Source of the DNA: an uncultured Chloroflexia bacterium
Lineage (GTDB): Bacteria > Chloroflexota > Limnocylindria > Limnocylindrales > CSP1-4
Direction: 5' to 3'
Length of the DNA stretch: 64,000 bases
Assembly (NCBI GenBank): GCA_963741085.1
Contig: CAVUGM010000006.1
Location: 565,822-629,821, forward strand
The position numbers and the translations under genes are program-made. A model generated the notes under the pieces. The model worked only from the letters and a program-made list of their open reading frames with translations, ran no database searches and was not told the origin of the DNA. Positions 1 to 63,957 of this stretch are shown here, piece by piece; positions within the stretch are counted from its first letter, which is position 1, and the number at the start of each line of letters is the position of its first letter.

Positions 1-350
1 CGCCGCGCAGCGCGCAGCCCTGGCCGCGGGGATCGAGCTCGCGGAGGGACTGGCCCGCCTCGTCGGCCTTCGCCCCGCCACCAGGACGGAGACGGCCCTC
101 CTCGGATCGCTCGTGGATCCGCGCCCCGCGCCCGGCCTCACCTGGTACCGGGTCGTCCTCGCCCACGGCTGGAAGCGGCAGGTCAGGCGCATGCTTGCCG
201 CGGTGGGCGCGCCCGTGGTGCGGCTCGTACGGGTGCGCGTCGGCACCCTGCGCCTCGACCTGCCGGCGGGCGGGGCCCGGCTTCTCTCGCCCGCCGAAGT
301 GCGACGCCTGGGGGCAGCGCCCGCAAGTCGGCCGCCGGCGACCTTCCGGC
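1..350 (+). CDS. RNA pseudouridine synthase (RsuA/RluB family), C-terminal fragment; window starts inside the gene
   Basis: In-frame translation upstream of 113 and following reads ...TWYRVVLAHGWKRQVRRMLAAVGAPVVRLVRVRVGTLRLDLPAGGARLLSPAEV, which matches the conserved RluB/RsuA C-terminal block (GxNRQVRRMxxAxGxxVxxLxRVxxG). No stop codon separates it from the downstream amidohydrolase reading frame. Confidence 0.6.
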
Positions 351-2023
351 GGGCCGTCGGGCGGACGGCCGAGGGTCCTGCCGACCTTCTCTTCACGAAC
401 GGGGCGATCGGGATCGTGGAACCGACGCGGCGCGTGGCGTCGGCGGTCGCCGTGCGCGACGGGAGGATCCTGGCCATCGGTCAGGACGCCGACCTGCATC
501 GCCTCGCCGGTCCGGCCACGCGCGTGGTCGACCTCGAGGGCCGCTCGCTCCTGCCCGGCTTCCAGGATGCGCACGTGCACCCGCCGATCGGCGGCTGGGC
601 GATGCTGACCTGCGACCTGCACGACGTGGCCTGGTCGCGGGCCGCCTATCTCGAACGGATCCGGGCGTACGCGGACGCCCGTCCCGACGAGCCGTGGATC
701 GTGGGCAGCGGCTGGTCGATGCCCGCCTTCCCAGGCGGAACCCCGTCGCGGCTCGACCTGGACGTGATCGTGCCCGATCGGCCCGTCTACCTGGAGAATC
801 GCGACGCGCATGGTGCCTGGGTCAACAGCCGGGCCCTGGCCCTTGCGGGGCTCACGGCAGCGTCCGTGGATCCGCCCGACGGACGGATCGAGCGCAACCC
901 CGACGGCAGCCCCCAGGGCACGCTCCACGAGGGCGCGGCGAATCTCGTCAGGAGGCTCGTGCCGCCCTTCGACACCGGGCGCTGGGAGGCTGCGCTCCTG
1001 GCGGCCCAGGCGCACCTGCACGCCCTCGGGATCACCGCCATCACGGACGCGTGGGTGGCGCCAGAGCACCTCCCGGCGTATCGGGCTCTCGCCGAGCGGG
1101 GCGTCCTCACGCTGCGCACGAACCTGTCGCTGTGGTGGGAGCGGGGTGGCGACCTCCGCCAGCTCGAGTGGTTCGAGGAAGCCCGGCGGACCGCCACGGT
1201 CGGGCGCCTGCGGGCCTCGGCGGTCAAGCTGATGCTCGATGGGGTCCTCGAGAACTACACCGGCGCGCTCCTCGAGCCCTACCTCGACGCGAGCGGCCGG
1301 GAGACCGCCAACTCGGGGATCGACTTCATCGACCGGCGCCGGCTGGCCGACGAGTTCGCGCCGGCACTCGACGCGGCCGGCTTCCAGCTGCACTTCCACG
1401 CCATCGGCGACCGTGCCGTGCGGTCAGCCCTCGACGCCGTCGAGGCGACTCGGCGCCGGCCAACGGGTCGTCCGATCGGAGGCCGCACGTCGCCCATCTC
1501 CAGGTCGTGCAGCCGGATGACATCCCACGCTTCGCGGCCCTCGGCGTGGGCGCGAACATGCAGCCGCTGTGGGCTGCCTTCGGCTCCCAGATGCACGATC
1601 TCACGATCCCGTACCTGGGCCCCCGGCGGAGCGTCGTGGCAGTACCCGTTCCGCAGCCTCGAGCGCGCTGGCGCGCGCCTCGTGGGCGGCAGCGACTGGC
1701 CCATCTCGACCGCCAACGTCCTCCGGGAGGTGGAGGTGGCGGTGAACCGTGTCGATCCGGAGCATCGCGGGGAGGAGCCGCCATTCCTGCCGGCCGAGCG
1801 CCTCGACCTGGCGTCTGCGCTGACGGCCTTCACGGCGGGGGCGGCGTGGGCGAACGGGCTCGAGCGGGAGACAGGATCGCTGGAGCCGGGCAAGCTGGCC
1901 GACCTCGTGGTGCTGGACCGGGACGTCTTCGACCGGGGTGCCGGCGAGATCGGCGATGCGCAGGTCCTGCTCACCCTGTCGGCGGGCGTCGCCGTCCACG
2001 CGGACGCCGGCCTGGGCTGGTAG
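299..2023 (+). CDS. Amidohydrolase-family metal-dependent hydrolase (YtcJ/Amidohydro_3-like); two compensating frameshifts around 1470-1640
   Basis: Motifs: LLFTNGAIGIV...RILAIG; HVHPPIGG; FHAIGDRAV; then in another frame HLQVVQPDDIPRFAALGVGANMQPLWA, then back to GGSDWPIS...GKLADLVVLDRD. A possible GTG start lies near 299. The frame switches 2->1->2, indicating two indels. Confidence 0.7.
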   Translation: MRRLGAAPASRPPATFRRAVGRTAEGPADLLFTNGAIGIVEPTRRVASAVAVRDGRILAIGQDADLHRLAGPATRVVDLEGRSLLPGFQDAHVHPPIGGWAMLTCDLHDVAWSRAAYLERIRAYADARPDEPWIVGSGWSMPAFPGGTPSRLDLDVIVPDRPVYLENRDAHGAWVNSRALALAGLTAASVDPPDGRIERNPDGSPQGTLHEGAANLVRRLVPPFDTGRWEAALLAAQAHLHALGITAITDAWVAPEHLPAYRALAERGVLTLRTNLSLWWERGGDLRQLEWFEEARRTATVGRLRASAVKLMLDGVLENYTGALLEPYLDASGRETANSGIDFIDRRRLADEFAPALDAAGFQLHFHAIGDRAVRSALDAVEATRRRPTGRPIGGRTSPISRSCSRMTSHASRPSAWARTCSRCGLPSAPRCTISRSRTWAPGGASWQYPFRSLERAGARLVGGSDWPISTANVLREVEVAVNRVDPEHRGEEPPFLPAERLDLASALTAFTAGAAWANGLERETGSLEPGKLADLVVLDRDVFDRGAGEIGDAQVLLTLSAGVAVHADAGLGW

Positions 2024-6199: not shown

Positions 6200-6276
6200 C
6201 GGGGTGTGGCGCAGCTTGGTAGCGCACCTGAATGGGGTTCAGGAGGTCCCGCGTTCGAATCGCGGCACCCCGACCA
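6200..6276 (+). tRNA. tRNA-Pro (anticodon GGG)
   Basis: Manual cloverleaf: acceptor CGGGGTG/CACCCCG; D-stem GCGC/GCGC; anticodon stem CCTGA/TCAGG; loop A-T-GGG-G-T; T-arm CCGCG-TTCGAAT-CGCGG; discriminator A; encoded CCA. Confidence 0.85.
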
Positions 6277-7330: not shown

Positions 7331-8555
7331 GCCCACCCGAATACGCGGCGCCCGCGACACCCTCACCCCGCCCCCGGCTCCGCATGGGACGCCCGCTCTT
7401 CGGATGAGCTCGTCGTGCCACGGTCGGAATGGCCGAAGAGCTTTGACACGACCGCGTGAGGCTGTCACGGCGACCGGGCGACCGGGCGACCGAGGCCGCG
7501 GCGCGCTCTGGGCGCTGGTGGCGCACCTGGAGGCACGCCATATGAGCGAAAGATAGGAGTCGGGCGTCATCCGACCCGCAATGCGCGGGCGCCGTGCCCG
7601 CAGGCTACGCGACCTCGCCCGTCCGGACGTCCCGAGGGCCAGCCCAACAAACGTTGCCGAAGCTGAGGCGGCAACGGCGACGAGCGCGAGCTTGCTCAAG
7701 AGAGGGCGTCCGGGGGTGGTCTTCGGTGGTGCCTTCTGTCACCGCATGAGCCCCATGCCCAAGTACGGCCCCGCGCCCAGGGCGTAGGCTACGAAACACG
7801 AGCGGGAGGCCCAGACACGCGGTCCATTCCCCGGCCGCCGGGACCGCGCCGAGCCACTGGCGAGACCGACCCGCGGGACCTGCGTCCCATCGATTGGGGA
7901 TGGTCTCTCCAGGTGGGCCGGCTCTTCTCCTTGCCCCCGACGGATGAAGACCCTCCATGGAGCAAGCGCTGCGCGCCCGAGCCTTACAATCCAGGCGCCA
8001 GTTGTGTTCGGGGGGCTGCACGCCGGCGGCGTTGAGCCGGGCGGCCCCGCCGGGTCGCCTGGCCCCGCCTGCAAGGTGGCGAGTGCCATGACCGAGGACC
8101 AGCGGTGGCGCACCTGGGCCTCCGCGCACGACGTAATGGCCACCATGCCCGGCTGGGCCGTCGGACCGTGCGTCTACCAGGGCGTCGACGGCGCTCGTCG
8201 CGGCACGCGACTACGTAGCCCGACCTATTGAGCGGTCCGCGGAAGGCAGAGAGAATCCCGCTTGGCCCCCGGCTCCGCGCGAGCGCGCACCGCTCCCCGC
8301 CCCCACGTGGGATTGGTCGCTGCACCGGGCGTCCGGGGGCCGCTGCATTCGAGCGATCCAGGCATTGACATGCCACAGTCCGTGCGGCAGGATCCGCGTT
8401 GCACTCATCGCTTTCTAGGCGGCCCTCGCGACACTCGGCCGCACGCTCTGGGGGGAGCGTGGACGGCGTGGTGTTCCCGAGGGCCGTTCGACGTGTCGAC
8501 CATTGAGCCGACCGGAGAGATGGGCTGCGCACCGGGCGTCAGGTGGCCGTTGGCC

Positions 8556-8834
8556 TCAGAAGTGTGCGAGCACGCGGTAGAAGTCGACGCTGTCCACCTG
8601 CATGAACCCGGGGCGGGGCGCGCTCCGTATCGGCTCCAGCGCCGCCCGTGCTGCTGCCTCGGTCTCGAACACCAACACGTTGAGCGTTCCGCCCGACCCG
8701 TCCGTCATCCAGAGCGCTGACACGATCCCGGGGGCGCGCCGCGTGCGCGGAAGCACGTTGGTCTGCAGGTCCTCCCCGGTTCCCTCGATGCGTTCGGGCT
8801 CTCCGGTCTCACGAACCACGACGGCGTACATAGA
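8556..8834 (-). CDS. Hypothetical small protein (~92 aa)
   Basis: MYAVVVRETGEPERIEGTGEDLQTNVLP...LNVLVFETEAAARAALEPIRSAPRPGFMQVDSVDFYRVLAHF. Composition is protein-like, unlike the R/P/S-rich alternative frames. The part of the ORF upstream of this Met looks like noise. Confidence 0.35.
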   Translation of the reverse strand, partial: SMYAVVVRETGEPERIEGTGEDLQTNVLPRTRRAPGIVSALWMTDGSGGTLNVLVFETEAAARAALEPIRSAPRPGFMQVDSVDFYRVLAHF

Positions 8835-9361
8835 CCCCCCTCCCGTGCTACGCCCACCCGGCAACGCTCCGGCGGCCCGATCATCGTAGCGCTGGTCCCC
8901 TCGCGGCTCCGCGCCGGGCGCTCCGCACTCCTTCGGGGACGGGAGGCGCATCGAGCATCCGGACCACGGTGCAGCCGAGTCTGCAACGCGGTGTCCCCTC
9001 CGGCCGGGCGCCAACCATGTCGGGCGGATCCCCGTCGAGAACTCCCGGAAGCTGCCCGCTGTGCGCACCGCCGCGACGGCCGGGCGCCGCTCTCATCCTC
9101 TCTTCATCGTCGATCGGCTATACGCCACACGAGGCGGGCCTGGGGTGCGCCTCACGGTCCCCGGCGTGGCCTTGAGCCCGGTCGCACTCCCACGAGGGTG
9201 GGATGGCCGGCGATCCCGGGCCGGTCGGGGGCCGTTTCATGCCCCGATCGGCGCGGCACTCAGTCGCTGGGGCGAACGCCTCTCATCGCCTATTCATGTA
9301 CGGTTGCCAGAATTCGTGCGGTCGAGCAGGTTCTGACACAGGTGGATCTGGCGAGCCGCAT

Positions 9362-13970: not shown

Positions 13971-14501
13971 ATGGATGTCCTCCAGGGCGACACTGGCTTC
14001 CCGACTCTGACGAGCCGACGGAAGCCACTCAGGCTTGCCCCGTCCCGCTCCAGCGTCCGCCAGGTCGCGTCGTTCGCCGCGATCGGCGTTGTCAGCACCG
14101 CCGCCTACGTCGTGCTCTACACCGCCTTCCGGCTGGCCCTCGGCGCGACCGCGTCCAACGCTCTGGCCCTGGTCATCACCGCGATCGGGAACACGGCCGC
14201 CAACCGGCGGCTCACCTTCGATGTCCGCGAGCGGGAGGGAGCCCTGCGCGACCAGGTCGGCGGGCTCGCCGCCCTCGGGGTCGCCCTCGCCATCACGACG
14301 CTGGCGGTCAACCTCCTTGGCGCAATCGCGCCCGGAGCCGGGCGCGCCGTCGAGCTCGTGGTCCTCGTCGCGGCGAACGTGCTGGCCACCATCTGCCGCT
14401 TCCTTCTCCTCCGTCACTGGATCGCCGGCCGACGCCGAGCGTCGGCGACGGGCACCCAGCCATCTGGCGCTGGGCTCGTGGTGGTGCCGGAGCGGGACTG
14501 A
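13971..14501 (+). CDS. GtrA-family membrane protein
   Basis: VRQVASFAAIGVVSTAAYVVLYTAFRL...NALALVITAIGNTAANRRLTF, four predicted TM segments. ATG at 13971. The upstream part of the long ORF is R/G-rich noise. Confidence 0.7.
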   Translation: MDVLQGDTGFPTLTSRRKPLRLAPSRSSVRQVASFAAIGVVSTAAYVVLYTAFRLALGATASNALALVITAIGNTAANRRLTFDVREREGALRDQVGGLAALGVALAITTLAVNLLGAIAPGAGRAVELVVLVAANVLATICRFLLLRHWIAGRRRASATGTQPSGAGLVVVPERD

Positions 14502-27470: not shown

Positions 27471-27546
27471 GCCCCCGTAGCTCAGTGGATAGAGCGAGGC
27501 CGTCCTAAGGCCTGCGTCGGCGGTTCGAGTCCGTCCGGGGGCGCCA
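27471..27546 (+). tRNA. tRNA-Arg (anticodon CCT)
   Basis: Manual cloverleaf: acceptor GCCCCCG/CGGGGGC; D-arm GCTC-AGTGGATA-GAGC; anticodon stem AGGCC/GGCCT with loop G-T-CCT-A-A; T-arm GGCGG-TTCGAGT-CCGTC; encoded CCA. Confidence 0.85.
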
Positions 27547-28560: not shown

Positions 28561-28995
28561 TCAGGCATTCGGCGGGGCCAGCAGGGGCCCAAGCGTCTCC
28601 ATTAGGTCCGGCGTGGTGATCGGGTCGTCTTCTGTGATCTTGCCGTTGGCAAGGCCGTAGTAGGTCAGGCCCCGGCCCGAGATCTTCTCCCCGTTGGCGA
28701 GGGTGTATTCGAAGGAGAAGCGGGCGACGACGGCATCCCCTTCGGCGATCAGGTCGGCGATCTTGAACTCACGAGCGGGTATGGCCGCAGCCATCGCAGC
28801 CAACGTCGCTTTGAAGCCCGCGACGTCCATGCCCCCCATCGCACGGTTCACGTAGTTCGGGGCAAACAGCTCGTCGATCACATCGACGTTGCCACCATCG
28901 AGTGTCTCGGTGATGAAGCGGCGGACGACGGCCTTGTTCTGCTCCGGAGACGCCACAGTGACCCCCTTCTGGGCGCAGGCGCGCCCATCCCGGAG
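28561..28995 (-). CDS. SnoaL-like / ester cyclase (NTF2-like superfamily)
   Basis: SPEQNKAVVRRFITETLDGGNVDVIDELFAPNYVN...FKATLAAMAAAIPAREFKIADLIAEGDAVVARFSFEYTL...GRGLTYYGLANGKITE. GTG start 7 nt after the AAGGGGG Shine-Dalgarno. Confidence 0.65.
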   Translation of the reverse strand, partial: LRDGRACAQKGVTVASPEQNKAVVRRFITETLDGGNVDVIDELFAPNYVNRAMGGMDVAGFKATLAAMAAAIPAREFKIADLIAEGDAVVARFSFEYTLANGEKISGRGLTYYGLANGKITEDDPITTPDLMETLGPLLAPPNA

Positions 28996-29112
28996 GGTCG
29001 GTCTCGCCATTGGCCCAGCGCGACGGTCGTGGCGACCGTATGAGGACGCCGCACTGGTTGGACCTCGCGGTCCGCTGCCACCCCCGGATCGGCGGAGTAT
29101 GCCACGGCCGTG
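28996..29112 (-). promoter_or_regulatory. Conserved structured 5'-UTR RNA motif (candidate riboswitch/cis-regulator), copy 1
   Basis: Sense (minus-strand) sequence: GGCAUACUCCGCC...GGGGG...hairpin GGACC-GCGA-GGUCC...CCAACCAGUGCGGCGUC...hairpin ACGGUCG-CCA-CGACCGU...GCUGGGCCAAUGGCGAGACCGACC, then a ~35-nt linker and the SD. It is about 90% identical to copy 2 and shares the 3' core with copies 3 and 4. Confidence 0.45.
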
Positions 29113-36092: not shown

Positions 36093-37547
36093 TCAGGCCG
36101 GTATGGCAAACGCGGCGGCGATCAGCGCGTCGACAGCCGCGCGAAGCGCCGAGCCGACCTGCGCATCGACGGCATGCTGGTCGATGAGGGCGCCAACCTG
36201 CGTCGCCAGACGTTGCACCTCGGATCGAGCGCCACGTACGTCACCGCTGGCGATCGAACGGTCGAAGGCGTCGAGGCCGCCCTCGAGATCCTTCACCTCG
36301 CCTCCCTTGAGGCCGCCCTTTCCTCGTGCAGAGGCCACTGCCGCTCGCATGGCCGTGCTGGCGGCCCTGGCGTCGGCATACGGATCTGTGCTCGCGGTCG
36401 GAACCGGGGAGGCTGTCGGAGTGGGTGACGGGACGGGCGTCGGCGTCGTTCGGGTGCTCGCCGATGGCGACGGCGAGATGCCCGTTCCAGAGGCTGCCGG
36501 GGAGGGCGAGGACCGGTCCGCCGAGCTGCCCGACCTGAGAATCATGAGCGCCATCGTCGCGAGGACGAGCCCCGCGACAACGACGCCGACGACGAGCAGT
36601 CGACGGTCCCTGCCGCCGGACGACGCAGCGGCGGTCGACTCGGCGGCATCTCCACCGAGTGGCAGCGCGGCCAGCGTCGTCACATCCTCGCTCGCTCGCG
36701 ACCCAGGCTGGGGCCGCGAACGAGCGAGCGCCTCTGACAGCGCCGTGCCGAACTCGGCGGCGGTCGGGCGACGCGCGGGATCAGCGTCGAGGGCTCGAGC
36801 GATCGCGGGATCGAACGCCGGACCAACGTCGGGGTTCAGGACGGAGACGGAGACAACCGGCCGGACACCCGCCGCGACCACCTCGTTGAGGCTGCCGGCG
36901 GGCCGCGGGAGGTGCCCCGTCAGTCCCAGGAAGGCGATGACCCCAAGTGCGTGGACGTCACTGGCTGGGCTTGCCGGTTGGCCGGCCAGCTGCTCGGGGG
37001 CGAGATAGGCGATGGTGCCGACGATTGCCCCGGTAGCGGTCAGTTCGCTCGGCCCGTCGGCGGCGATCCCGAGGTCGGCGACCCGGGCACGCCCGCTGGT
37101 CAGGAGGACGTTTGACGGCTTGAGGTCGCGGTGCACGATGCCTCGCGCATGAAGAGCGTCGAGGCCCTCTGCGACGTCGACGAGGATCGGGACGAGTTCG
37201 TCGGGAGGCACGGCGTGGGTCGCCGAGCCCCCCAGACGATCGGCGAGCGATCCGCCATCGCACAGGTCCATCACCAGGAATGGCCCGGCTCCTGTCGCGA
37301 GGTCGGCCGGCTCGACATCGTGGATCGCTACGACATTCGGATGGTCGATCGCGGCCAGGACGCGAGCCTCGTGATCGAAACGCTCGGCGACGACGGGATC
37401 CGTGGCGTGGTTCGCGAGCAGCACCTTCAAGGCGACGTCACGTTGAAGTCGCAGGTCTCGGGCGCGGAAGACGGTGGCGAACCCGCCTGACCCGATCGGG
37501 GCGTCGAGCCGGTACCGCCCAGCCAGCAGGTCACCGGTCTTGGGCAT
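36093..37547 (-). CDS. Ser/Thr protein kinase with TM segment and Ala/Pro/Ser-rich extracytoplasmic C-terminal region
   Basis: GSGGFATVFRARD...VALKVL; HPNVVAIHDV; IVHRDLKPSNVLL; DLGIA; TIAYLAPE; TM segment LLVVGVVVAGLVLATMALMIL. Confidence 0.85.
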   Translation of the reverse strand: MPKTGDLLAGRYRLDAPIGSGGFATVFRARDLRLQRDVALKVLLANHATDPVVAERFDHEARVLAAIDHPNVVAIHDVEPADLATGAGPFLVMDLCDGGSLADRLGGSATHAVPPDELVPILVDVAEGLDALHARGIVHRDLKPSNVLLTSGRARVADLGIAADGPSELTATGAIVGTIAYLAPEQLAGQPASPASDVHALGVIAFLGLTGHLPRPAGSLNEVVAAGVRPVVSVSVLNPDVGPAFDPAIARALDADPARRPTAAEFGTALSEALARSRPQPGSRASEDVTTLAALPLGGDAAESTAAASSGGRDRRLLVVGVVVAGLVLATMALMILRSGSSADRSSPSPAASGTGISPSPSASTRTTPTPVPSPTPTASPVPTASTDPYADARAASTAMRAAVASARGKGGLKGGEVKDLEGGLDAFDRSIASGDVRGARSEVQRLATQVGALIDQHAVDAQVGSALRAAVDALIAAAFAIPA

Positions 37548-37819
37548 GACCCGAGGGTACCTGAGCGCTGCCAGATTTCGCCCGGCATGATTGGCGACGA
37601 GACTGGGACACGGGACTCATCGCTCGGCGGAGAAGCCGGGAAGGCTCGAGTCCGGCCATCAAACCCAGCCCTCAGCGGCCGACGCAGTCCCTGCGCCACG
37701 GCCAAGGGGCGAGACCCCGACCCTGACGGCCGACATCCCGCCCCCCGGTGTCGTGTTTCTCGAGGGAATCGATCGAACCGAGCCGGGGAGCGTCCGGTCG
37801 GCTCACCCGGCTGCCGGGG

Positions 37820-38173
37820 TCAGAGTTCCGCGACCAGCTTCCCGAAGACGGCGAACTGGCGCTCGAGGCCGGCGCCGATGAATGCGCCGATGACGCCGAT
37901 GTTGTGGAGACAGAGACCGGCGCGGGCGTTGAAGCCCGTGAACTCATCGCTGCGGCGCACACGGTCGAGCTTCTCGGCCTCCCCACGAATGAGCAGGAAG
38001 CCACCCAGATCGCCCCCGTGCGGCTCCAGGAAGACTGGCTCGAAGCTCTCGATCTCACCCCGCTGCTGGAGCCCGCCGTAGTACGCGAGCACCTCGCCGA
38101 ACAGGGTCTGCGCACGCTGCTCGCGACCGACGATGGTTGGCCCCCAGCCGATGAAGATTGCGCTATCAGCCAT
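37820..38173 (-). CDS. Hypothetical small cytoplasmic protein (~117 aa), paralogue of 63601..63957
   Basis: MADSAIFIGWGPTIVGREQRAQTLFGEVLAYYGGLQQRGEIESFEPVFLEPHGGDLGGFLLIRGEAEKL..., about 45% identical to the protein at 63601..63957. Preceded by conserved RNA motif copy 2. Confidence 0.5.
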   Translation of the reverse strand: MADSAIFIGWGPTIVGREQRAQTLFGEVLAYYGGLQQRGEIESFEPVFLEPHGGDLGGFLLIRGEAEKLDRVRRSDEFTGFNARAGLCLHNIGVIGAFIGAGLERQFAVFGKLVAEL

Positions 38174-38302
38174 GCTCCACCCCCCTTGTGGAAGATCGAC
38201 TGGTCGGTCTCGCCATTGGCCCAGCACGACGGTCTGGCGACCGCATGGAGACGCCGCGCTGGTGGGAACCTTCGGCCCCGTGCCCCCTGCCGTGGGCGGA
38301 GT
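38174..38302 (-). promoter_or_regulatory. Conserved structured 5'-UTR RNA motif (candidate riboswitch/cis-regulator), copy 2
   Basis: Sense: GCAUACUCCGCCCACGGCAGGGGGCACGGGGCCGAAGGUUCCCACCAGCGCGGCGUCUCCAUGCGGUCGCCAGACCGUCGUGCUGGGCCAAUGGCGAGACCGACC-(26 nt incl. AAGGGGGG SD)-AUG. Stem changes are compensatory relative to copy 1. Confidence 0.45.
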
Positions 38303-38708
38303 ATGCGCGCGGGCGTTCTTCTTGTCCCTATGTGTGCCAGCCGGACTGGTCGCACGGCACCAACCGAATGTGAAACCCGACCCGCTCATGGTCTGCACGC
38401 GGCCCCGAAGCGGAGGGGACGTCGACTCCTCGCGCTATAGCGCACCATGCCTTGTCGACGTCGCTCGGAACGTTCACGCGACAGGCATCGGCGGGGATGG
38501 CCATGGTGTGTCGGGGCTAGCCATTCTCGCCCCGACCGACGACGATCCTCGCTACGACATGAACCAGCTCTAGCCTCGTGAAGACCTACGCGAACACGAA
38601 CGGTGCGACCTGCCGCGACATGGCGCGGGAGCCGAAGGCGTCGTTCCGAGCCGTCGCGGACCGCCACGCCGGCGCGCCTTCGTCGCCTCGGAGCCTCTGA
38701 CCCTCGTC

Positions 38709-41456: not shown

Positions 41457-41716
41457 CTGCTGACCGCGAGACGAAGAGGCGATGATCGTCCGGGGGTGAT
41501 GGCCCGACCAGCACCGGGCACCCGCATGCCATTGCGTGGTGCCTGCCGGCACCACTTTGGACGGTTTGGGACGCACGGCCCTGTCGCTCATCTCGGGTCG
41601 GAGCGTAGAAGACACCTACGGCGGAAGGCGCTGACACACGGTCCACACTCTGGTCGCCGGGACCGTGTCGAGCCACTGGCGAACCCGACCCGCCCAAGGC
41701 GTCCCTGGGAGGATCG

Positions 41717-42559
41717 ATGCGCGCCAGACTCCTGTCTCTCACGATGGCCGCCCTGCTGGCGGCCTTCGTCGCCGCTCCGGCGGGCGCCGTCACGAACGGC
41801 ACGCCCGACGGGAACAACCATCCGTATGTCGGCTTGATCATCTTCGACACGCTCGTCAACGGCGTGCCGACGCCGACGTGGCGCTGCAGTGGCGCGCTGC
41901 TCTCGCCGACTGTCGTCCTGACCGCCGCTCACTGCACCGACGGCGCGGTCGCCGCCCGGGCGTGGTTCCAGCCCGACATGACGTATACGGCGGTGCCGTA
42001 CCCGCTCTATCCATTCGGCGGCCCCGGCAGCGGAGCGTTCGAGGGCAGCCCGAACGTCTATCCCGGGTACGCGAGCCCCTTCGCCAACGGCCTGCCGGGC
42101 TTCTCCTTTGGTGACATCGGCGTCGTCGTCCTGAGCGAGCCGGTGCCCGTGAGCCAGGTGGCGGTCTACGCCAAGCTCCCGACCGCCGGGACCGTCGATG
42201 GCCTCCCGAACAAGGCGGCCCTCGACTACGTCGGGTACGGCGTCCAGTACCAGGTCCAGTCCCCGGGTGTTAAGCCGTTCGACCGGTGGGCCGGCCCTCG
42301 GATCCGCAACTACGCGCCGGGTCAGCTGGTCCCGGGGAGCTTCAAGGGCAGCGAGAACCTCATCAAGGTCACGATGAACCCGGGCGCCGGCAAGGGTGGG
42401 ACGTGCTTCGGTGACTCGGGTGGCCCCGACCTGCTCGGTGGCACGAGCACCGTGCTCGCCGTCAACTCGTTTGTCACGAACTCGAACTGCAGCGGCGTCG
42501 GCTACGACACCCGTGTCGACGTCCAAGCGCGGCTCGACTGGATCAAGTCGTTCCACTGA
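41717..42559 (+). CDS. Secreted trypsin-like serine protease (S1 family)
   Basis: Signal peptide MRARLLSLTMAALLAAFVAAPAGA; LTAAHC (His); GDIGVVVL (Asp region); CFGDSGGP (Ser). Confidence 0.8.
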   Translation: MRARLLSLTMAALLAAFVAAPAGAVTNGTPDGNNHPYVGLIIFDTLVNGVPTPTWRCSGALLSPTVVLTAAHCTDGAVAARAWFQPDMTYTAVPYPLYPFGGPGSGAFEGSPNVYPGYASPFANGLPGFSFGDIGVVVLSEPVPVSQVAVYAKLPTAGTVDGLPNKAALDYVGYGVQYQVQSPGVKPFDRWAGPRIRNYAPGQLVPGSFKGSENLIKVTMNPGAGKGGTCFGDSGGPDLLGGTSTVLAVNSFVTNSNCSGVGYDTRVDVQARLDWIKSFH

Positions 42560-46916: not shown

Positions 46917-49703
46917 ATGACCGACCAGACACGCGTGGCGCTTGACGTGAACGGGATTCCGCGCACCGTCGTCGTGCCGTCCAGCGCACGGCTCCTCGAC
47001 CTCCTTCGCGATGGCCTGGGCCTGACCGGGACGAAGGAAGGCTGCGAGGACGGCACCTGCGGAACGTGCGTCGTGATGGTCGACGGGAAGATGGCGCGAA
47101 GCTGCCGGACGCCGGCCATCGAGGTCACCGGCAAGGATGTCGTGACCATCGAGGGGCTCGGGACGCCGGACCGGCCGCACCCCCTGCAGGAGGCCTTCGT
47201 GGCCGCCGATGCCGTCCAGTGCGGCTTCTGCACACCCGGGATGATCATGGCGGCCGCGGCGCTTCTCGAGCGCAATCCGCGCCCCCGCCGGCCCGAGATC
47301 GTGCGCTGGCTGGGGAGCAACCTCTGTCGGTGCACGGGCTACAACGCCATCGTCGATGCGATCGAATTCTCGGCCGGCGGCCGCCAGGGATCCCCGCGGC
47401 AGTGGCCGTGGTCCACCGGGGTCGGCGGCGAGCCGGCAGCGACCGCCGACACCGGACACGTGCGCGCCGAAGCCCTCGCCAAGGCGACGGGCCGCGCGAT
47501 GTACGCCGCCGATCTCGCTGTCCCGGGGATGCTCCATGGCCGGACCCTGCGGAGCCCGCATCACCACGCCGACATCACGCGCATGGACACCGAAGTCGCG
47601 CTCGGGCTGCCGGGCGTGGTGGCGGTCCTGACCGCGCGCGACGTACCGGGTGAGAACAGCTACGGGCGGAAGCTGAAGGATCAGCCGGTCCTTGCACTGG
47701 CAAGGGTTCGCCAGGTTGGCGATCCGGTGGCGCTCGTGGTCGCCACCTCGCCGGAGGTCGCCGCCGAGGCGCTCGCCCTGATCGACGTCGAGTACCGGGT
47801 CCTGCCCTCCGTGCTCACTCCCGACGAGGCGCTCGAGGACGGCGCGCCCTCGATCCATCCGGACGGCAACCTGCTGGCCGAGAACTGGCTCCGCTCGGGC
47901 GACCTTGTCGCGGGGTTCGCCCGCGCCGACGTGGTCGTGGAGGCCACGTACTCGACGCCCTGGAACGAACATGCCTATCTCGAGCCCGAGGCGGCGCTGG
48001 CCGAGTGGGACGGCGACACGCTGGTGATCAGGACGGCGACGCAGTACAGCCACTACCAGCGGGCCGAGGTGGCCCGCACGCTGGGCCTGCCAGCCGAGCG
48101 CGTGCGGGTGATCCCCACCGTGGTCGGGGGTGCGTTCGGTGGCAAGACGGAGATCTCGTGCCAGTGCCTGGCGGCCCTTGCGGCGTATCGCACGGGCCGC
48201 CCCGTGAAGATCGTCTACGGCCGCGCCGAGTCGTTCATCTCCACGACGAAGCGCCACCCGTACCGGATCCGCGTCAGGGCAGGGGCCACCCGCGAAGGCG
48301 ATCTCATGGGCCTGCAGGTCGACATGCTCGCCGACACCGGCGCGTACGCCTCGTTCGGCCCCGGGCTCATGGTGAAGACGTTCGCCTCGGCCGCGGGCCC
48401 GTACCGCTGGTCTGCCGTGGAGCTCCACGGGCGGGTTGTCTTCACGAACAACCCGACGGCGGGCGCCATGCGCGGCCCCGGCACGACCCAGGTGGTATTC
48501 GCCCTCGAATCGCACCTGGACCAGCTGGCGACGAGCCTCGGGATGGACCCGCTCGAGCTTCGCCGGCGAAACGCCCTGCGCGCGGGAGACCGGCTCCTCT
48601 CGGGCGAGGTCCTTGCCACGGATCCGCCGTACGTCGCAACGCTCGACGCGGTGCGCCCGCACTGGGCGGAGGCGGTGGACCGGTGCACCGCCTCCTTCGA
48701 CCGCGCTGGGACGCGCCGTCGCGGCGTCGGCGTGGCCTCGATCTGGTACGGGATCGGCGGCGGGGGCGGCGGCCCGACGCCCGGCCAGGACCCGACCCTC
48801 ACCGTGGGCCGTGGGCCGGGACGCGCGGCACTCGACCTGCTGCAGGACGGTTCGATCGTGCTCCGGACCGGCGCTATCGACCTGGGGCAGGGGAGCGCGA
48901 CGGCCCTCCGCCTCGTCGCCGCCTCCGAGCTCGGCGTGGCGCCGGACGGCGTGACGGTCATCTGCGGGGACACCGGGACCTGCCCTGACGCCGGCCCCTC
49001 GGTCGGAAGCCGGGTCACGTTCTTCGTCGGCAACGCCGTCCGGAACGCGGCCGCCGACCTCCGCGAGGCGATCCTTGGCACGGCGGGCGGCCTGCTGGCG
49101 GCACCCGTACGGGACCTGGAGATCCACGAAGGGAACGTGACGCTGCGGGACGACGGCCGGCCCGGAGTCGCCCTGGCGGACGTCGCCCGCGCGAGGGCGG
49201 AGGCCGGGCTCTCGACGACATTCGACGGCTATTTCGACGCCGATGTCCCTGCGTACGCGGTGAGCCCGGAGCGCGGCGAGCCGTACGCTCTGTACGTCAG
49301 CGCCACCCAGGTGGCCGAGGTCGAGGTCGACACGGCCACGGGCGTCGTCCGGGTCGTGCGCGTGGTCGCCGCCCACGACGTCGGGAGGCCGGCCTTTCCC
49401 GAGGGCCTCGTGGGGCAGGTCGAGGGCGGGATCGCGATGGGGATCGGCTTCGCCCTGAGCGAGGAGTTCGTGCCCGGCGAGACCACCGGCTTCGGGCAGT
49501 ACCGGATCCCGAGGACGCGGGACATGCCGGAGATGGTCACGCTCCTCGTCGGCGGCAGCGCAGACGGGCCGCCCGAGGTCCAGCTCAAGGGCGTGGCCGA
49601 GTGCTCCAACATGGCCGTCGCGCCGGCCATCGCGAACGCGCTTGCACACGCGACCGGCGAGCGCGTCCGTCACCTGCCGCTGCGCCTTGCCGGGAGGGGA
49701 TGA
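46917..49703 (+). CDS. Xanthine-dehydrogenase-family molybdoenzyme: fused [2Fe-2S] (CoxS-like) plus molybdopterin-binding (CoxL-like) subunit, intact
   Basis: N-terminus CEDGTCGTCVVMVDG...CGFCTPGMIMAAAALL...CRCTGY (two 2Fe-2S clusters). Then Ald_Xan_dh_C blocks: RLKGEALAKATGRAMYAADL, GGAFGGK, ...GQVEGGIAMGIGFAL...E (active-site Glu region). 2.8 kb with no frame disruption. No FAD/CoxM-like subunit adjacent. Confidence 0.85.
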   Translation: MTDQTRVALDVNGIPRTVVVPSSARLLDLLRDGLGLTGTKEGCEDGTCGTCVVMVDGKMARSCRTPAIEVTGKDVVTIEGLGTPDRPHPLQEAFVAADAVQCGFCTPGMIMAAAALLERNPRPRRPEIVRWLGSNLCRCTGYNAIVDAIEFSAGGRQGSPRQWPWSTGVGGEPAATADTGHVRAEALAKATGRAMYAADLAVPGMLHGRTLRSPHHHADITRMDTEVALGLPGVVAVLTARDVPGENSYGRKLKDQPVLALARVRQVGDPVALVVATSPEVAAEALALIDVEYRVLPSVLTPDEALEDGAPSIHPDGNLLAENWLRSGDLVAGFARADVVVEATYSTPWNEHAYLEPEAALAEWDGDTLVIRTATQYSHYQRAEVARTLGLPAERVRVIPTVVGGAFGGKTEISCQCLAALAAYRTGRPVKIVYGRAESFISTTKRHPYRIRVRAGATREGDLMGLQVDMLADTGAYASFGPGLMVKTFASAAGPYRWSAVELHGRVVFTNNPTAGAMRGPGTTQVVFALESHLDQLATSLGMDPLELRRRNALRAGDRLLSGEVLATDPPYVATLDAVRPHWAEAVDRCTASFDRAGTRRRGVGVASIWYGIGGGGGGPTPGQDPTLTVGRGPGRAALDLLQDGSIVLRTGAIDLGQGSATALRLVAASELGVAPDGVTVICGDTGTCPDAGPSVGSRVTFFVGNAVRNAAADLREAILGTAGGLLAAPVRDLEIHEGNVTLRDDGRPGVALADVARARAEAGLSTTFDGYFDADVPAYAVSPERGEPYALYVSATQVAEVEVDTATGVVRVVRVVAAHDVGRPAFPEGLVGQVEGGIAMGIGFALSEEFVPGETTGFGQYRIPRTRDMPEMVTLLVGGSADGPPEVQLKGVAECSNMAVAPAIANALAHATGERVRHLPLRLAGRG

Positions 49704-50624
49704 CCGACGGACATCCTCCGGCGCCTGTTCGGTCCCGACCCACGCGACCCGGCGCCGGCGCGCGACCCACGCGAGCTCGATCCAGCGAGCGCAGCCGAGA
49801 CGGGGGGCGAGCGCCTGCCGCCTGCGCCGACCGGGCTGCCCTGCCCGTACTGCGCGGTGCTCCTCGACCCGCCGCCGGCCAGAAGGCGCTTGTGCCCGCG
49901 CTGCCGGCAGCCGATCGTGCCCCGGCGGGTGGAGGGCCGGCTCGTCCTGCTGACGCGAGCCGCGGTCACGGTCTTCGAGGCTCAACGCCAGCGCGAGGTC
50001 GACGAGCGCGACTGGGCCGCGTCGCGGCGGCGCTGGCTCCAGCTGGCGAAGGCGGTGAAGGCACCCGCGGCCCGGCGGTCCAGGCTGGCGGCAGCCCCGA
50101 TCACGGCCGACGTCGTCGTCTCGTGCCGGGCCCTCTACCTGTCCGCCGCGGAACGCGCGGTCAAGGGGGCGCGGCGCGAGAAGCACTGGGGCGAGGTCGG
50201 CCACCTCCGCCGCGAGCAGGCGATGGCGCTCTTCGAGGAATCCGGCTCACGGGTGCCGCTTCCCGACGAGATCGCCGCCCTGCACCGCGACGGCATGACA
50301 GCCGTGCTCCGCTCGCTGGTGCCACTGGCCCACAATGTCGAGCTCGTGAGCGCGGAATGCTGTCCTGCCTGCCGGGCCGAGACCGGGCGGACGTTCCGGA
50401 TCGCGGACGAGATCCAGGTCGGACGCCTCCCCCACGCCGGGTGCCCGAAGGGCCTCTGCCGGTGCGACTGGTGGCCGGCCACTATCGAGCCGGGCCGGCG
50501 CCGTCGCCGTCGAGCGGTGCCACGGGGCACGCCGACTTCGGCGGGGAGCAGGGAAGAGCTCGACGCCGAGCTGACGGAAACACCGACCCCCCTGGCTGCG
50601 GAGGCCGAGCCGTCGACCGAATGA
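49700..50624 (+). CDS. Hypothetical protein with N-terminal zinc-ribbon (CPYC...CPRC) and C-terminal Cys cluster; frameshift at about 49709
   Basis: ATG overlaps the XDH stop (ATGA); MTD then a 1-nt shift (extra G in 'gacggac') into ILRRLFGPDP...GLPCPYCAVLLDPPPARRRLCPRCRQPIV...VSAECCPACRAETGRTFRIADEIQVGRLPHAGCPKGLCRCDWW. Confidence 0.5.
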
Positions 50625-59641: not shown

Positions 59642-60666
59642 CCCGCCGGCCGCGGGTCGCGGTGATCTTCACCGGCGGGACGATCAGCATGACCGTGGAC
59701 ACCTCGGCCGGCGGAGTCGTGCCGACGCTGGCCGGGGCCGACCTGCTGGCCAGCGTACCCGGGCTCGCTGACCTCGCCGAGGTCACCCTGATCGACCTCG
59801 GACGGACGCCGGCCAGCCACTTCACCTTCGCCGACGTGCTGCGCATCCGGTCGCAGGTCGACGACGCCCTCGCCGACCCGGAGGTCCGCGGGGTCGTGGT
59901 CGTGCAGGGGACCGACACGCTCGAGGAGACGGCGTTCGCCTGGGACCTCTGCCACCGTGACGCCCGCCCGGTCGCCGTCACTGGCGCCATGCGGAACGCG
60001 AGCGAAGCGAGCTGGGACGGGCCGCGCAACCTGCGGGACGCGATCCGGGTCGCCGGGTCGCCCCGGGCTCGCGACGCCGGCGTCGTGGTCGTGCTGGGTG
60101 GGAAGGTCCACGCCGCGGACGCGGTTGCGAAGCGGCACGCGTCGGCGCTCGACGCCTTTGCCACCCGCGAGGGCCCGCCCCTGGGCGGAGTGGGGGAGCG
60201 CTCCCTCCGGTTGCGACCGCGCGGGCCCCGGCGGAGCCTCGCGATGACGCCGGCCGCAGCGGCGCTGCCCGTCTCGATCGTCATCGCCGCCCTGGACACG
60301 GACGGGAGCCAGGTCGACGCGGCTGTGCGTGACGGCGCTCGGGGCACCGTCGTCGCGGCCACCGGGTCAGGGAACACGCACCCCGACCTCCTGCGGGCGG
60401 CCATCGACGCGCGCAACGCCGGTGTGGCCGTGGCTCTCGCCTCGCGCACGGGCGCCGGATCCGTCGGCACGACATACGCCTTTCCAGGCGGCGGGGCGAC
60501 GTGGGCACGGGCCGGCATCCCGTTCGCCGGCGATCTCACGCCCGTGCAGGCGCGGGTTGCGCTGGCCCTCGGGCTGGGCGCGGGCCTGGTTGGCGACGCG
60601 TTGGCCGCCCTCCTCCTGGGCCCCGCCGCAGACCTGACGGACCGCTGGCCGCGGCCGATATCCTAG
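59638..60666 (+). CDS. L-asparaginase (type I / bacterial asparaginase family)
   Basis: VAVIFTGGTISM (Thr nucleophile motif); VVVVQGTDTLEETAFAW (TD motif); VLGGKVHAADAVAKRHASALDAF. Confidence 0.8.
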   Translation: MTRRPRVAVIFTGGTISMTVDTSAGGVVPTLAGADLLASVPGLADLAEVTLIDLGRTPASHFTFADVLRIRSQVDDALADPEVRGVVVVQGTDTLEETAFAWDLCHRDARPVAVTGAMRNASEASWDGPRNLRDAIRVAGSPRARDAGVVVVLGGKVHAADAVAKRHASALDAFATREGPPLGGVGERSLRLRPRGPRRSLAMTPAAAALPVSIVIAALDTDGSQVDAAVRDGARGTVVAATGSGNTHPDLLRAAIDARNAGVAVALASRTGAGSVGTTYAFPGGGATWARAGIPFAGDLTPVQARVALALGLGAGLVGDALAALLLGPAADLTDRWPRPIS

Positions 60667-62118: not shown

Positions 62119-62200
62119 CGGAACCCTCCCTCGGGACGCATTCCTCGCGGGTCGGTCTCGCCAGTGGCTCGGCGCGGTCCCGGCGGCCGGGTTTGGACCG
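62119..62200 (-). promoter_or_regulatory. Conserved structured 5'-UTR RNA motif, copy 4 (3' core plus variant stem)
   Basis: Sense: CGCGGUCC-AAACCCGGCCGCCGGG-ACCGCG-CCGAGCCA-CUGGCGAGACCGACC-CGCGAGGAAUGCGUCCCGAGGGAGGGUUCCGCG-AUG. The 8-bp stem CGCGGUCC/GGACCGCG replaces ACGGUCG/CGACCGU of copy 1 (covariation). Confidence 0.4.
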
Positions 62201-62289
62201 CGTGTCAACGCTCCCCGTCATCAGTCACAGATGCGGCCAGGGGTCCAGGTGTCCCAGGTGCTCTATTCGGCATGGTGCCCGGAGGCAAC

Positions 62290-62941: not shown

Positions 62942-63402
62942 CTATCTGGTCGGTTCGGCGGCGAAGTGACCGCCGATATTGAGGACCGTGCTCGGGACGA
63001 AGAGCAACAGGTAGACGACCCAGGCGGCAGGCTCGATGTTCCACAGCGGCCACCACATGAACATCTGGGCCGAGAAGTAGAGCGCCAGGTACGGGCCAAG
63101 GACGTTCCACGCGATGGGCGGACGGCGCCACTGGCGCGGGCGCCACACGTCGACGATCGCCCCGAACAGAGCCCACGCAGCCACCAGGAGAGGGCCGACG
63201 AATAGCCTCCACGTCTGTCCGTCGAGGAACAGCCACGCTCCGAGCGGCAGTCCGAGCCCGCCGAAGGCGTACACGACCCAGCCGAAGCGCGCCGCCAGCT
63301 GCTGCGACCAACGACGCGCCGCGAAGTAGCCCAGGAGCAGCGTCTCCGTTGCCAACCCGAATGCGACGAAGGCAAGTTCCGCCCCGGTCACATGCTCTCC
63401 AC
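62942..63402 (-). CDS. Hypothetical integral membrane protein (~150 aa, 4 TM)
   Basis: GTG start. AELAFVAFGLATETLLLGYFAARRW...FGWVVYAFGGLGLPLGAWLFL...LFVGPLLVAAWALFGAIVDVW...NVLGPYLALYFSAQMFMWWPLWNIEPAAWVVYLLLF. Confidence 0.5.
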
Positions 63403-63523
63403 GCGATGAAGGTCGATCGGAAGGCCTCGGAACGCAAGAGGCGAACGACCCGCTGAACGAAAGGCGCCCGCCTTGCGAGGTGAGGGTCACGCCCGCCGGT
63501 CACCGGGCAGGCAACAGCACTCG

Positions 63524-63600: not shown

Positions 63601-63957
63601 TTAGATCAGGTCGACGATGGCCTCGTTCCAGGCGCCCATCCAGCGCACCATCCCCGCATCGACCACAGCAGTGACGACGCCGACGCCATTGAGGCAGGCG
63701 TCCGCCCGCATGGTCATACGCTGGAATTCCGGCGCCATGCTGAGGCGCCCCAGCTTCTCGGGATCGCCGCGCAGCAAGGCGAAGCCGCCAAGATCGCCCC
63801 CGTGGGAGTTCAGTTCCGCGAACTCGAAGCTCTCGATCTGGCCTGCCGTCTTGAGCCCGTTCCAGTAGGCGACGGCTTCCTCGAACACCTTGGCCGCGGC
63901 GAGTTCCTTGCCGGCGCGCTGCGAGCCCCAGCCGATGAACAATGCGTACTCGGCCAC
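63601..63957 (-). CDS. Hypothetical small cytoplasmic protein (118 aa), paralogue of 37820..38173
   Basis: (GTG)AEYALFIGWGSQRAGKELAAAKVFEEAVAYWNGLKTAGQIESFEFAELNSHGGDLGGFALLRGDPEKL..., sharing IGWG...IESFE...GGDLGGF..LRG..EKL with the 38-kb paralogue. Confidence 0.5.
   Translation of the reverse strand: MAEYALFIGWGSQRAGKELAAAKVFEEAVAYWNGLKTAGQIESFEFAELNSHGGDLGGFALLRGDPEKLGRLSMAPEFQRMTMRADACLNGVGVVTAVVDAGMVRWMGAWNEAIVDLI

Follow-up and report, generated by a model that had tools for sequence, protein, structure and literature searches.

Binding of cyclic di-guanosine monophosphate (c-di-GMP) by riboswitches of the canonical c-di-GMP-II class was reportedly established by Lee and colleagues in 2010, and regulons rich in exported and surface proteins, with many copies per genome, are typical of c-di-GMP riboswitches. 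Variants of this class differ from it at ligand-pocket nucleotides; Weinberg and colleagues are said to have defined them in 2017 by changes at ligand-contacting nucleotides, and to have written that they 'might recognize different bacterial signaling molecules'. Here we describe an RNA of this variant type in a stretch of 64,000 nucleotides (nt) from an uncultured Chloroflexia bacterium (contig CAVUGM010000006.1, positions 565,822 to 629,821; the whole stretch is referred to below as the window, and coordinates are those of the window). A structured RNA at 38190-38301 on the minus strand is followed by a Shine-Dalgarno region and then by the ATG, at 38173, of a gene for a 117-aa protein (37820..38173, minus strand), which belongs to an unannotated family with a predicted dimeric alpha/beta-barrel (DABB, ferredoxin-like) fold, hereafter the barrel family. 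Our reading, to which we give a probability of roughly 0.78, is that the RNA is a long-form c-di-GMP-II-GAG aptamer leader through which a small molecule controls translation, and that the barrel protein is a minor but conserved target of it.

Read 5' to 3' on the minus strand, the segment 38302-38174 consists of a -10-like CATACT, a GC-rich structured segment, AAGGGGGGUGGAGC and the ATG of the 117-aa open reading frame (ORF). An Rfam scan (cmscan) aligns 38193-38282(-) to the entire RF03169 (c-di-GMP-II-GAG) model with a score of 33.3 bits (E = 7.7e-5 in a local search, 0.014 over the whole window). The aptamer itself (38197..38292) rests on this match, on covariation and on a score of 98.5 bits with R3, a covariance model of extended structure introduced below. 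Its helices are P1 (38292-38286 with 38203-38197), P2 (38284-38282 with 38220-38218) and an 11-bp P3 (38262-38252 with 38231-38221), in the order of the RF03169 full-model alignment and all present in the R3 alignment. A further hairpin, P2a (38264..38279; GGGGCC-GAAG-GUUCCC), identified by covariation and by RNAalifold, is inserted after the 5' strand of P2 and ahead of P3. The 5' strand of the pseudoknot, CGGUCGCC in the P3 loop (38236..38243), is identical to the Rfam consensus and complementary to GGCGA-ACCG (38214-38205), the 3' strand contained in the 3' junction (38204..38217; AAUGGCGAGACCGA, with the junction motif GGCGAGACCG). Both strands are invariant in 21 of 21 aligned long-class sequences, so that their complementarity is seen but covariation is not, and the 3' junction is likewise invariant in two of our alignments (A4 and A5). 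At 38217-38202 the sequence AAUGGCGAGACCGACC matches the RF03169 consensus core UGGCGAGACCGaCC exactly; as we read the consensus lines of the two Rfam models, the GAG and GCG variants would be set apart by junction nucleotides, with consensus GAGACCGA in the one and GAGCCCGA in the other. The aptamer lies in sense orientation, and the 3' strand of P1 ends 23 nt 5' of the ATG. In its helices, pseudoknot, core and position the RNA agrees with the structural definition of RF03169, and we file it as a member of that family belonging to an insertion-bearing subclass. An earlier note on this DNA, made from the sequence alone, had proposed a structured 5'-leader motif here, a proposal upheld by the full-model match, the R3 score and the covarying helices.

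When this copy is set beside a second one in the window (at 29091), the leader upstream of an orthologue (locus L004) and some 20 metagenomic sequences found through the exact core GCCANTGGCGAGACCGACC, a long subclass emerges whose features are the extra hairpin P2a and the 11-bp P3. R3, built on an alignment (A9) of 17 sequences of this architecture, all from outside the window, scores 38190-38301(-) with an E-value of about 1e-20 and gives 99.5 bits to 28984-29097(-), while copies of the same architecture reach 43.6 bits (the window copy at 29091) and 40.4 bits (locus L167) in the RF03169 scan. Over 24 distinct long-class sequences, in an alignment fitted to the model, standard pairs occupy 86% of cells, a figure that falls to 35-44% once the 3' partners are displaced by 1-3 columns. 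Both sides have changed in 18 of 27 pairs, and none of 500 shuffles reaches the observed values. Double changes occur at all six pairs of P2a (89% paired) and at 7 of the 11 pairs of P3 (92% paired), the inner helix of P1 is 85% paired, and P2 is invariant. The structured RNA at 38190-38301 is confirmed well beyond chance. Close orthologues of the downstream gene, 72-97% identical to one another, bear canonical GAG, GCG or long-GAG aptamers, which suggests from sequence comparison that the three forms are functionally interchangeable; they probably read the same signal.

The leader also has a putative promoter and expression platform. A candidate sigma-70-type promoter, GGGACA-17 nt-CATACT, comprises a -35-like GGGACA (38323..38328, minus strand) and the -10-like CATACT (38300..38305, minus strand), the latter conserved, with constant spacing from the aptamer on its 5' side, among long-class members. 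Its match of 8 of 12 positions falls under the 9/12 cut-off of the promoter scanner; a corresponding pattern, (G/T)(G/T)GAC(A/C)-16..18-(C/T)A(T/C)A(C/A)N, also precedes the 29097 copy (promoter-like element at 29130-29100, minus strand) and the aptamers of L004, L123, L001, L006 and L007. We considered the conserved 5' box ACUCCGCC as an anti-Shine-Dalgarno sequence pairing with GGAGU or GGGGU, and set this aside for a candidate -10 element because a -35-like GGGACA/TTGACC lies 16-18 nt upstream in many copies. As a separate observation, the -10 box together with CC reads ACUCC and could pair with the Shine-Dalgarno sequence of several leaders, over 7 bp in the case of L137. Between aptamer and start codon, a presumptive platform at 38175..38193 (minus strand) takes the form of a mini-hairpin, UUCCAC/GUGGAG, with the Shine-Dalgarno run AAGGGGG in its loop, and ends 2 nt 5' of the ATG. 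The orthologues in L004, L006 and L007 and, in part, those in L001 and L002 are preceded by a comparable (U)UCCAC-(G/A)AGGAG-GUGG(G/A)G.

No terminator-like site was found in 37500-38600. Of the 133 copies with a called downstream ORF among the matches listed in the metagenome census described below, 116 have their start codon no more than 40 nt from the core, a spacing that leaves little room for a terminator and so points to translational control; regulation is probably exerted at translation initiation. In the mechanism that we propose, a small monocistronic gene would have this RNA as its promoter-proximal leader, with transcription from GGGACA-17-CATACT starting at about 38293, at the first nucleotides of P1 and some 7 nt past the -10 element. 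A small molecule, likeliest a nucleotide-derived second messenger and maybe not c-di-GMP, would stabilise P1 and the pseudoknot, and their formation would tip the equilibrium between the 6-bp Shine-Dalgarno hairpin and other pairings open to the linker, of which the minimum free energy (MFE) fold of the leader displays one. The resulting change in Shine-Dalgarno accessibility would control translation initiation, turning expression either on or off.

The association between RNA and protein was examined from both sides. On the protein side, a one-genome-per-species scan returned 134 loci with relatives, of which the best 80 were kept. R1, a covariance model built from canonical aptamer copies, finds an aptamer directly upstream of the gene in all six close orthologues whose upstream sequence is present and which are testable in that sense (L001, L002, L003, L004, L006 and L007); these are 72-76% identical and come from Chloroflexota labelled Limnocylindria, Limnocylindrales or CSP1-4. 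Three of their aptamers (L001, L006, L007) pass the Rfam threshold, one of the three being classed as GCG. The window encodes a 118-aa paralogue (63601..63957, minus strand, GUG start), which represents a second clade (clade B), 40-47% identical to the first (clade A). Seven clade-B relatives (L209-L215; 69-75% identical), chosen purely by their long contigs, all have an RF03169 aptamer above the gathering score (55-72 bits) that ends about 21 nt before the start codon. All members sampled from the two clades, which share only about 44% identity, have kept the aptamer. Outside this lineage it was absent, by R1 and by R3, upstream of all 73 homologues at 51-61% identity, drawn from Gaiellaceae, Solirubrobacteraceae and Streptosporangiaceae (Actinomycetota), Ktedonobacterales, Thermomicrobiales, Gemmatimonadaceae, Planctomycetia and Polyangiaceae, and Rfam found no RNA family at all at 20 diverse loci of these other lineages. 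Linkage is complete in both clades of the Limnocylindria-type lineage (13 of 13 testable relatives plus the window), and the protein occurs without the RNA elsewhere. Phylogenetic co-occurrence, which the earlier note had put forward as a check, holds for the 13 Limnocylindria-type relatives and does not extend to the other lineages, where the absence of the RNA upstream of homologues, named there as evidence against the idea, is what we observe (0 of 73 loci).

On the RNA side, a metagenome census using an exact 19-nt core pattern gave at least 120 loci with at least 139 copies; the downstream ORF was picked by highest third-position GC, and percentages are approximate. The counts in this paragraph refer to the matches listed. 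There are 130 distinct downstream genes, window included, and only six belong to the barrel family, which nevertheless forms the second largest cluster. The most frequent target is a secreted protein of about 100-110 aa, found at no fewer than 10 sites (L086, L121, L142, L149, L151, L153, L154, L171, L177 and L200); at the seven sites compared, its leader is a distinct long aptamer, 'type B', in which GGAUGCCAAUGG replaces CUGGGCCAAUGG; this suggests that the type B leader and the secreted-protein gene were duplicated together. Other targets include SnoaL_2 proteins (6), S-adenosylmethionine (SAM) methyltransferases (5), several further secreted families at 3-6 sites each, and SRPBCC proteins, SCO4226-like proteins and extracytoplasmic function (ECF) sigma factors (2 each). 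The 80 Pfam families among the targets are for the most part rare, about 70 of them being represented in only one or two. By a crude pattern, signal-peptide-like N-termini mark 88 of 130 targets (68%), against 10-17 of 50 other ORFs of the window (20-34%). In composition the regulon resembles what a second messenger or signalling molecule would control, and is unlike that of a metabolite-pathway riboswitch, where the cargo points to the ligand. The barrel family is a conserved minor target of this large, heterogeneous regulon of mostly exported proteins, not its centre: its description as the recurrent downstream gene is borne out by the six close orthologues of the 117-aa protein and the seven relatives of the 118-aa paralogue, whereas its description as the primary regulated cargo does not survive the census.

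The link between type B leaders and one gene family also raises the possibility that the RNA is not a ligand sensor, and is instead a promoter-leader cassette, conserved and spread by duplication along with its genes, such as a leader bound by a protein or a small RNA. Aptamer subtype does track gene family in some cases, and no ligand of the GAG/GCG class is known to us. Against this stand the homology and architecture that the RNA has in common with a riboswitch class whose binding of c-di-GMP is reportedly established, and the pattern of conservation, in which core and pseudoknot stay fixed and the helices differ by compensatory substitutions. The aptamer is moreover borne by unrelated genes, as the diversity of Pfam families attests, and orthologous genes with different aptamer subtypes argue against simple co-duplication. 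We consider a cassette of this kind highly improbable.

The barrel proteins themselves are a coherent family. The 117- and 118-aa proteins are paralogous, as had been supposed (44% identity over their full length, BLASTP E = 2e-35; 151 bits for the 118-aa protein with the family profile), and by that profile they are the only two members in the window. They are also unassigned, as had been stated: Pfam gives no family at E<=1 for either paralogue and no relevant one (ABM, Dabb, EthD, MLI, GYD, NIPSNAP and others) at E<=10 for 43 family members, an NCBIfam search of the paralogues gives nothing meaningful, and a sequence-profile search of the Protein Data Bank (PDB) with the protein gives nothing below E 0.1. 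None of 826 homologues in a 90%-clustered collection has a Pfam domain. The family comprises 1,070 clusters at 50% identity (E<=1e-3), or 617 at E<=1e-10, almost all of its members being standalone proteins of about 118 aa. Among its invariant residues are IGWG, close to the N-terminus, and, between the second and third strands, E-P-H-G-G-D-L-x-G-F. No signal peptide was found in the 117-aa protein.

An AlphaFold2 (AF2) monomer model of the 117-aa protein (predicted local distance difference test score 97, predicted template-modelling score 0.85) has the order beta-alpha-beta-beta-alpha-alpha-beta-alpha. The Foldseek search of such a model that had been proposed recovers the DABB fold: the top 50 PDB matches are all DABB or dimeric ferredoxin-like-fold proteins (template-modelling score 0.55-0.65, identity 6-17%, probability 1.0, best E 8e-5), among them ABM, EthD, muconolactone isomerase, methylmuconolactone isomerase, YciI- and NIPSNAP-type folds. 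Structures matched include the hydroxynitrile lyase PeHNL (5xzt), SnoaB (3kg0), YgiN (1r6y), EthD (2ftr), olivetolic acid cyclase (5b0a), SP1 (1si9) and At3g17210 (1q53). With these proteins the AF2 monomer model shares a ferredoxin-like beta-alpha-beta-beta-alpha-beta core of about 100 residues; the family differs from them in its own invariant motifs, in an extra C-terminal helix and in the low sequence identity. The product is predicted to be cytoplasmic and to adopt the dimeric barrel, which on this model makes it a new, unannotated family inside a well-known and functionally promiscuous fold. Its activity is not readable from the fold.

This bears on the proposal that the riboswitch chiefly serves the barrel family, whose protein would bind, produce or break down whatever the RNA senses. 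Two of the six window copies do precede the only two members of the family in the window, every sampled member of both paralogous clades (6 of 6 and 7 of 7) keeps the aptamer, and, among the matches listed, the family's rank as second cluster is in keeping with the idea; proteins of the DABB fold, such as those matched by Foldseek, often bind or convert small molecules. On the other side, the family supplies so small a part of the listed targets, and the gene has no conserved operon partners, its synteny with uvrA being limited to Gaiellales-type genomes and its neighbours otherwise variable. Profile searches revealed no similarity to nucleotide-binding families or to nucleotide-cyclase/phosphodiesterase families. 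Homologues of other lineages do without the RNA, and the function of the protein is therefore independent of the RNA's ligand. We think the proposal quite unlikely, and see even less in the narrower version, that the GAG, GCG and long forms read one signal with the barrel family as its receptor or turnover enzyme, which we would call a long shot. The suggestion that the protein gives a handle on the ligand is not borne out either, as what was found is a generic DABB fold with no Pfam or NCBIfam assignment, and nothing links protein to ligand.

The neighbourhoods of the family offer several further observations. A divergent uvrA adjoins the family gene in 31 of the 80 loci (L011 and 30 among L012-L079; at about 1-1405, minus strand); we rejected it as a functional clue, since its 85-96% identity reflects lineage synteny within Gaiellales-type Actinomycetota only. 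Some of these uvrA-adjoining loci also have a CHRD-domain gene and a metallophosphoesterase near the family gene. Crude ORF clustering of the GC-rich flanks was dropped as a neighbourhood clue, swamped as it was by spurious ORFs. Neighbours of the clade-B gene vary, apart from a GNAT acetyltransferase (Acetyltransf_3) directly downstream on the same strand in four of the seven loci (L211 3447-4040; L212 3432-4043; L214 3506-4237; L215 3622-4089), with which the gene could be co-transcribed; the window paralogue is instead followed by a 182-aa ORF (62942-63490(-)). The 117-aa gene is followed, 272 nt downstream on the same strand, by a gene for a 484-aa Ser/Thr protein kinase with a FIMAH-like C-terminal region (36093-37547(-)); no terminator was detected between the two, and they may be co-transcribed. 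In several loci, tRNA genes lie a few hundred bases to a few kb from riboswitch-linked barrel-protein genes (L088 2609-2682; L141 522-605; L210 2314-2386; L167 10995-11066; window 6200-6273 and 27471-27543), a proximity that is probably coincidental.

The window contains six copies of the aptamer, not the four counted in the earlier note; at gathering thresholds, an Rfam scan of the whole window reports four aptamers, of c-di-GMP-II variant families in clan CL00127. Besides the copy at 38190-38301(-), there is a canonical-length GAG copy at 7796-7880(+) (RF03169, 67.2 bits); the second long-form, P2a-bearing copy at 28984-29097(-) (Rfam match 28986-29091, 43.6 bits), before a SnoaL_2 gene (28956-28561; E 7e-18); a GCG-type copy at 41615-41699(+) (RF03170, 71.1 bits), before a gene for a secreted trypsin-like protease (41717-42559; E 2e-11); and a canonical-length GAG copy at 62141-62224(-) (RF03169, 70.2 bits), before the gene for a 161-aa protein with a signal-peptide-like N-terminus and no Pfam match (62116-61631). 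The sixth copy, before the 118-aa paralogue, is cut by the window end: the visible 43 bases (64000-63958, minus strand) are its 3' part, CUGGCGAGACCGACCCGC, and the Shine-Dalgarno region, in the order CUGGCGAGACCGACCCGC...GGGGAGGA...GUG, with partial model matches. The targets within the window are accordingly the SnoaL_2 protein, the protease, the 161-aa protein and the two barrel proteins, with one copy lacking a clear gene. For that copy, at 7796-7880, no convincing downstream gene was found, the sole candidate being a 95-aa ORF with no Pfam match that starts 64 nt after the Rfam match (region 7796-8231(+)). As a leader this copy could be orphaned or decayed, or could belong to an unrecognised small gene. 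On the opposite strand from it, a 170-aa ORF (8556-9068(-)) resembles by eye, in its C-terminal part, an ABM-type barrel domain, and is unrelated in sequence to the 117-aa family. Three weak matches (49684-49758, 59669-59752 and 50535-50597; 19-24 bits), which appear inside long ORFs, were rejected as copies for want of the GGUCGCC and GGCGAGACCGACC cores. Elsewhere in the window, the direct-repeat model CRISPR-DR20 matches 14416-14451(-) weakly (26.7 bits, gathering score 42).

Such a density of copies, before unrelated genes, suggests a very large regulon per genome, and it is the kind of observation that would fit an aptamer which still senses c-di-GMP, the barrel gene then being an ordinary member of a c-di-GMP regulon. 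The RNA shares its Rfam clan and its architecture with canonical c-di-GMP-II, exported and surface proteins abound in the regulon, and the aptamer occurs in many copies per genome (6 in 64 kb, and several metagenome loci with 2-3). In Rfam clan competition, however, every copy goes to the GAG or the GCG variant model and never to canonical c-di-GMP-II; a six-frame translation of the 64-kb window contains no GGDEF motif, which is weak evidence at that length. We regard continued sensing of c-di-GMP as unlikely, though not far-fetched.

Several points weigh against our own reading of a long-form GAG leader under small-molecule control. We know of no validated ligand for the c-di-GMP-II-GAG/GCG variants, and the literature that we found using the RF03169 and RF03170 models reports none. 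At 33.3 bits the 38193-38282(-) copy remains below the RF03169 gathering score of 40; it does so because the 16-nt P2a hairpin has no states in the Rfam model, and the shortfall concerns an operational cut-off, not a structural feature. Counting covariation on a model-fitted alignment biases the result towards structure; P2a and its compensatory changes, together with the invariant pseudoknot, also emerge when RNAalifold is run on a plain MAFFT alignment. By MFE the leader folds no better than its shuffled versions (z = 0.43), an uninformative outcome to be expected of an RNA that is GC-rich and pseudoknotted. The promoter, the transcription start and the Shine-Dalgarno hairpin are read from sequence together with a handful of orthologous leaders, and the census, with its exact pattern, yields approximate proportions.

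The leader motif belongs to an already catalogued riboswitch-like RNA family, of which it is a useful new example and not a new kind of system. No ligand of the GAG/GCG class being known to us, the window and its relatives provide practical starting points for ligand screening, as a dense natural set with six copies in 64 kb here and, in the metagenome loci L090, L106 and L167, three copies each within 4.6 to 11 kb. The roughly 130 regulated genes among the matches listed amount to a first rough census of a second-messenger-type regulon, made up of exported proteins and of small ligand-binding folds (SnoaL/NTF2, SRPBCC, SCO4226-like and the barrel family). In the Limnocylindria-type lineage it includes one cytoplasmic protein family whose linkage is complete at every locus sampled. 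The long subclass with P2a, being under-scored by the Rfam model, is missed or nearly missed by current annotation.

Set beside canonical c-di-GMP-II, the window RNAs have the same fold class, a pseudoknotted aptamer, many copies per genome and exported or surface targets; they differ in being assigned to the GAG or GCG models in clan competition, and in their occurrence in Limnocylindria-type Chloroflexota, the canonical class being found mostly in Clostridia. The closest described systems are the GAG and GCG variants themselves (RF03169 and RF03170, clan CL00127), with which the RNA at 38190-38301(-) shares the P1-P2-P3 arrangement, the pseudoknot, the 3' core GCCANUGGCGAGACCGACC and the position in a 5' leader. 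From the Rfam models of these variants, the 38190 copy, the 29097 copy and at least 20 metagenomic relatives depart in a covarying P2a and an 11-bp P3, a long form whose scores drop to 33-44 bits.

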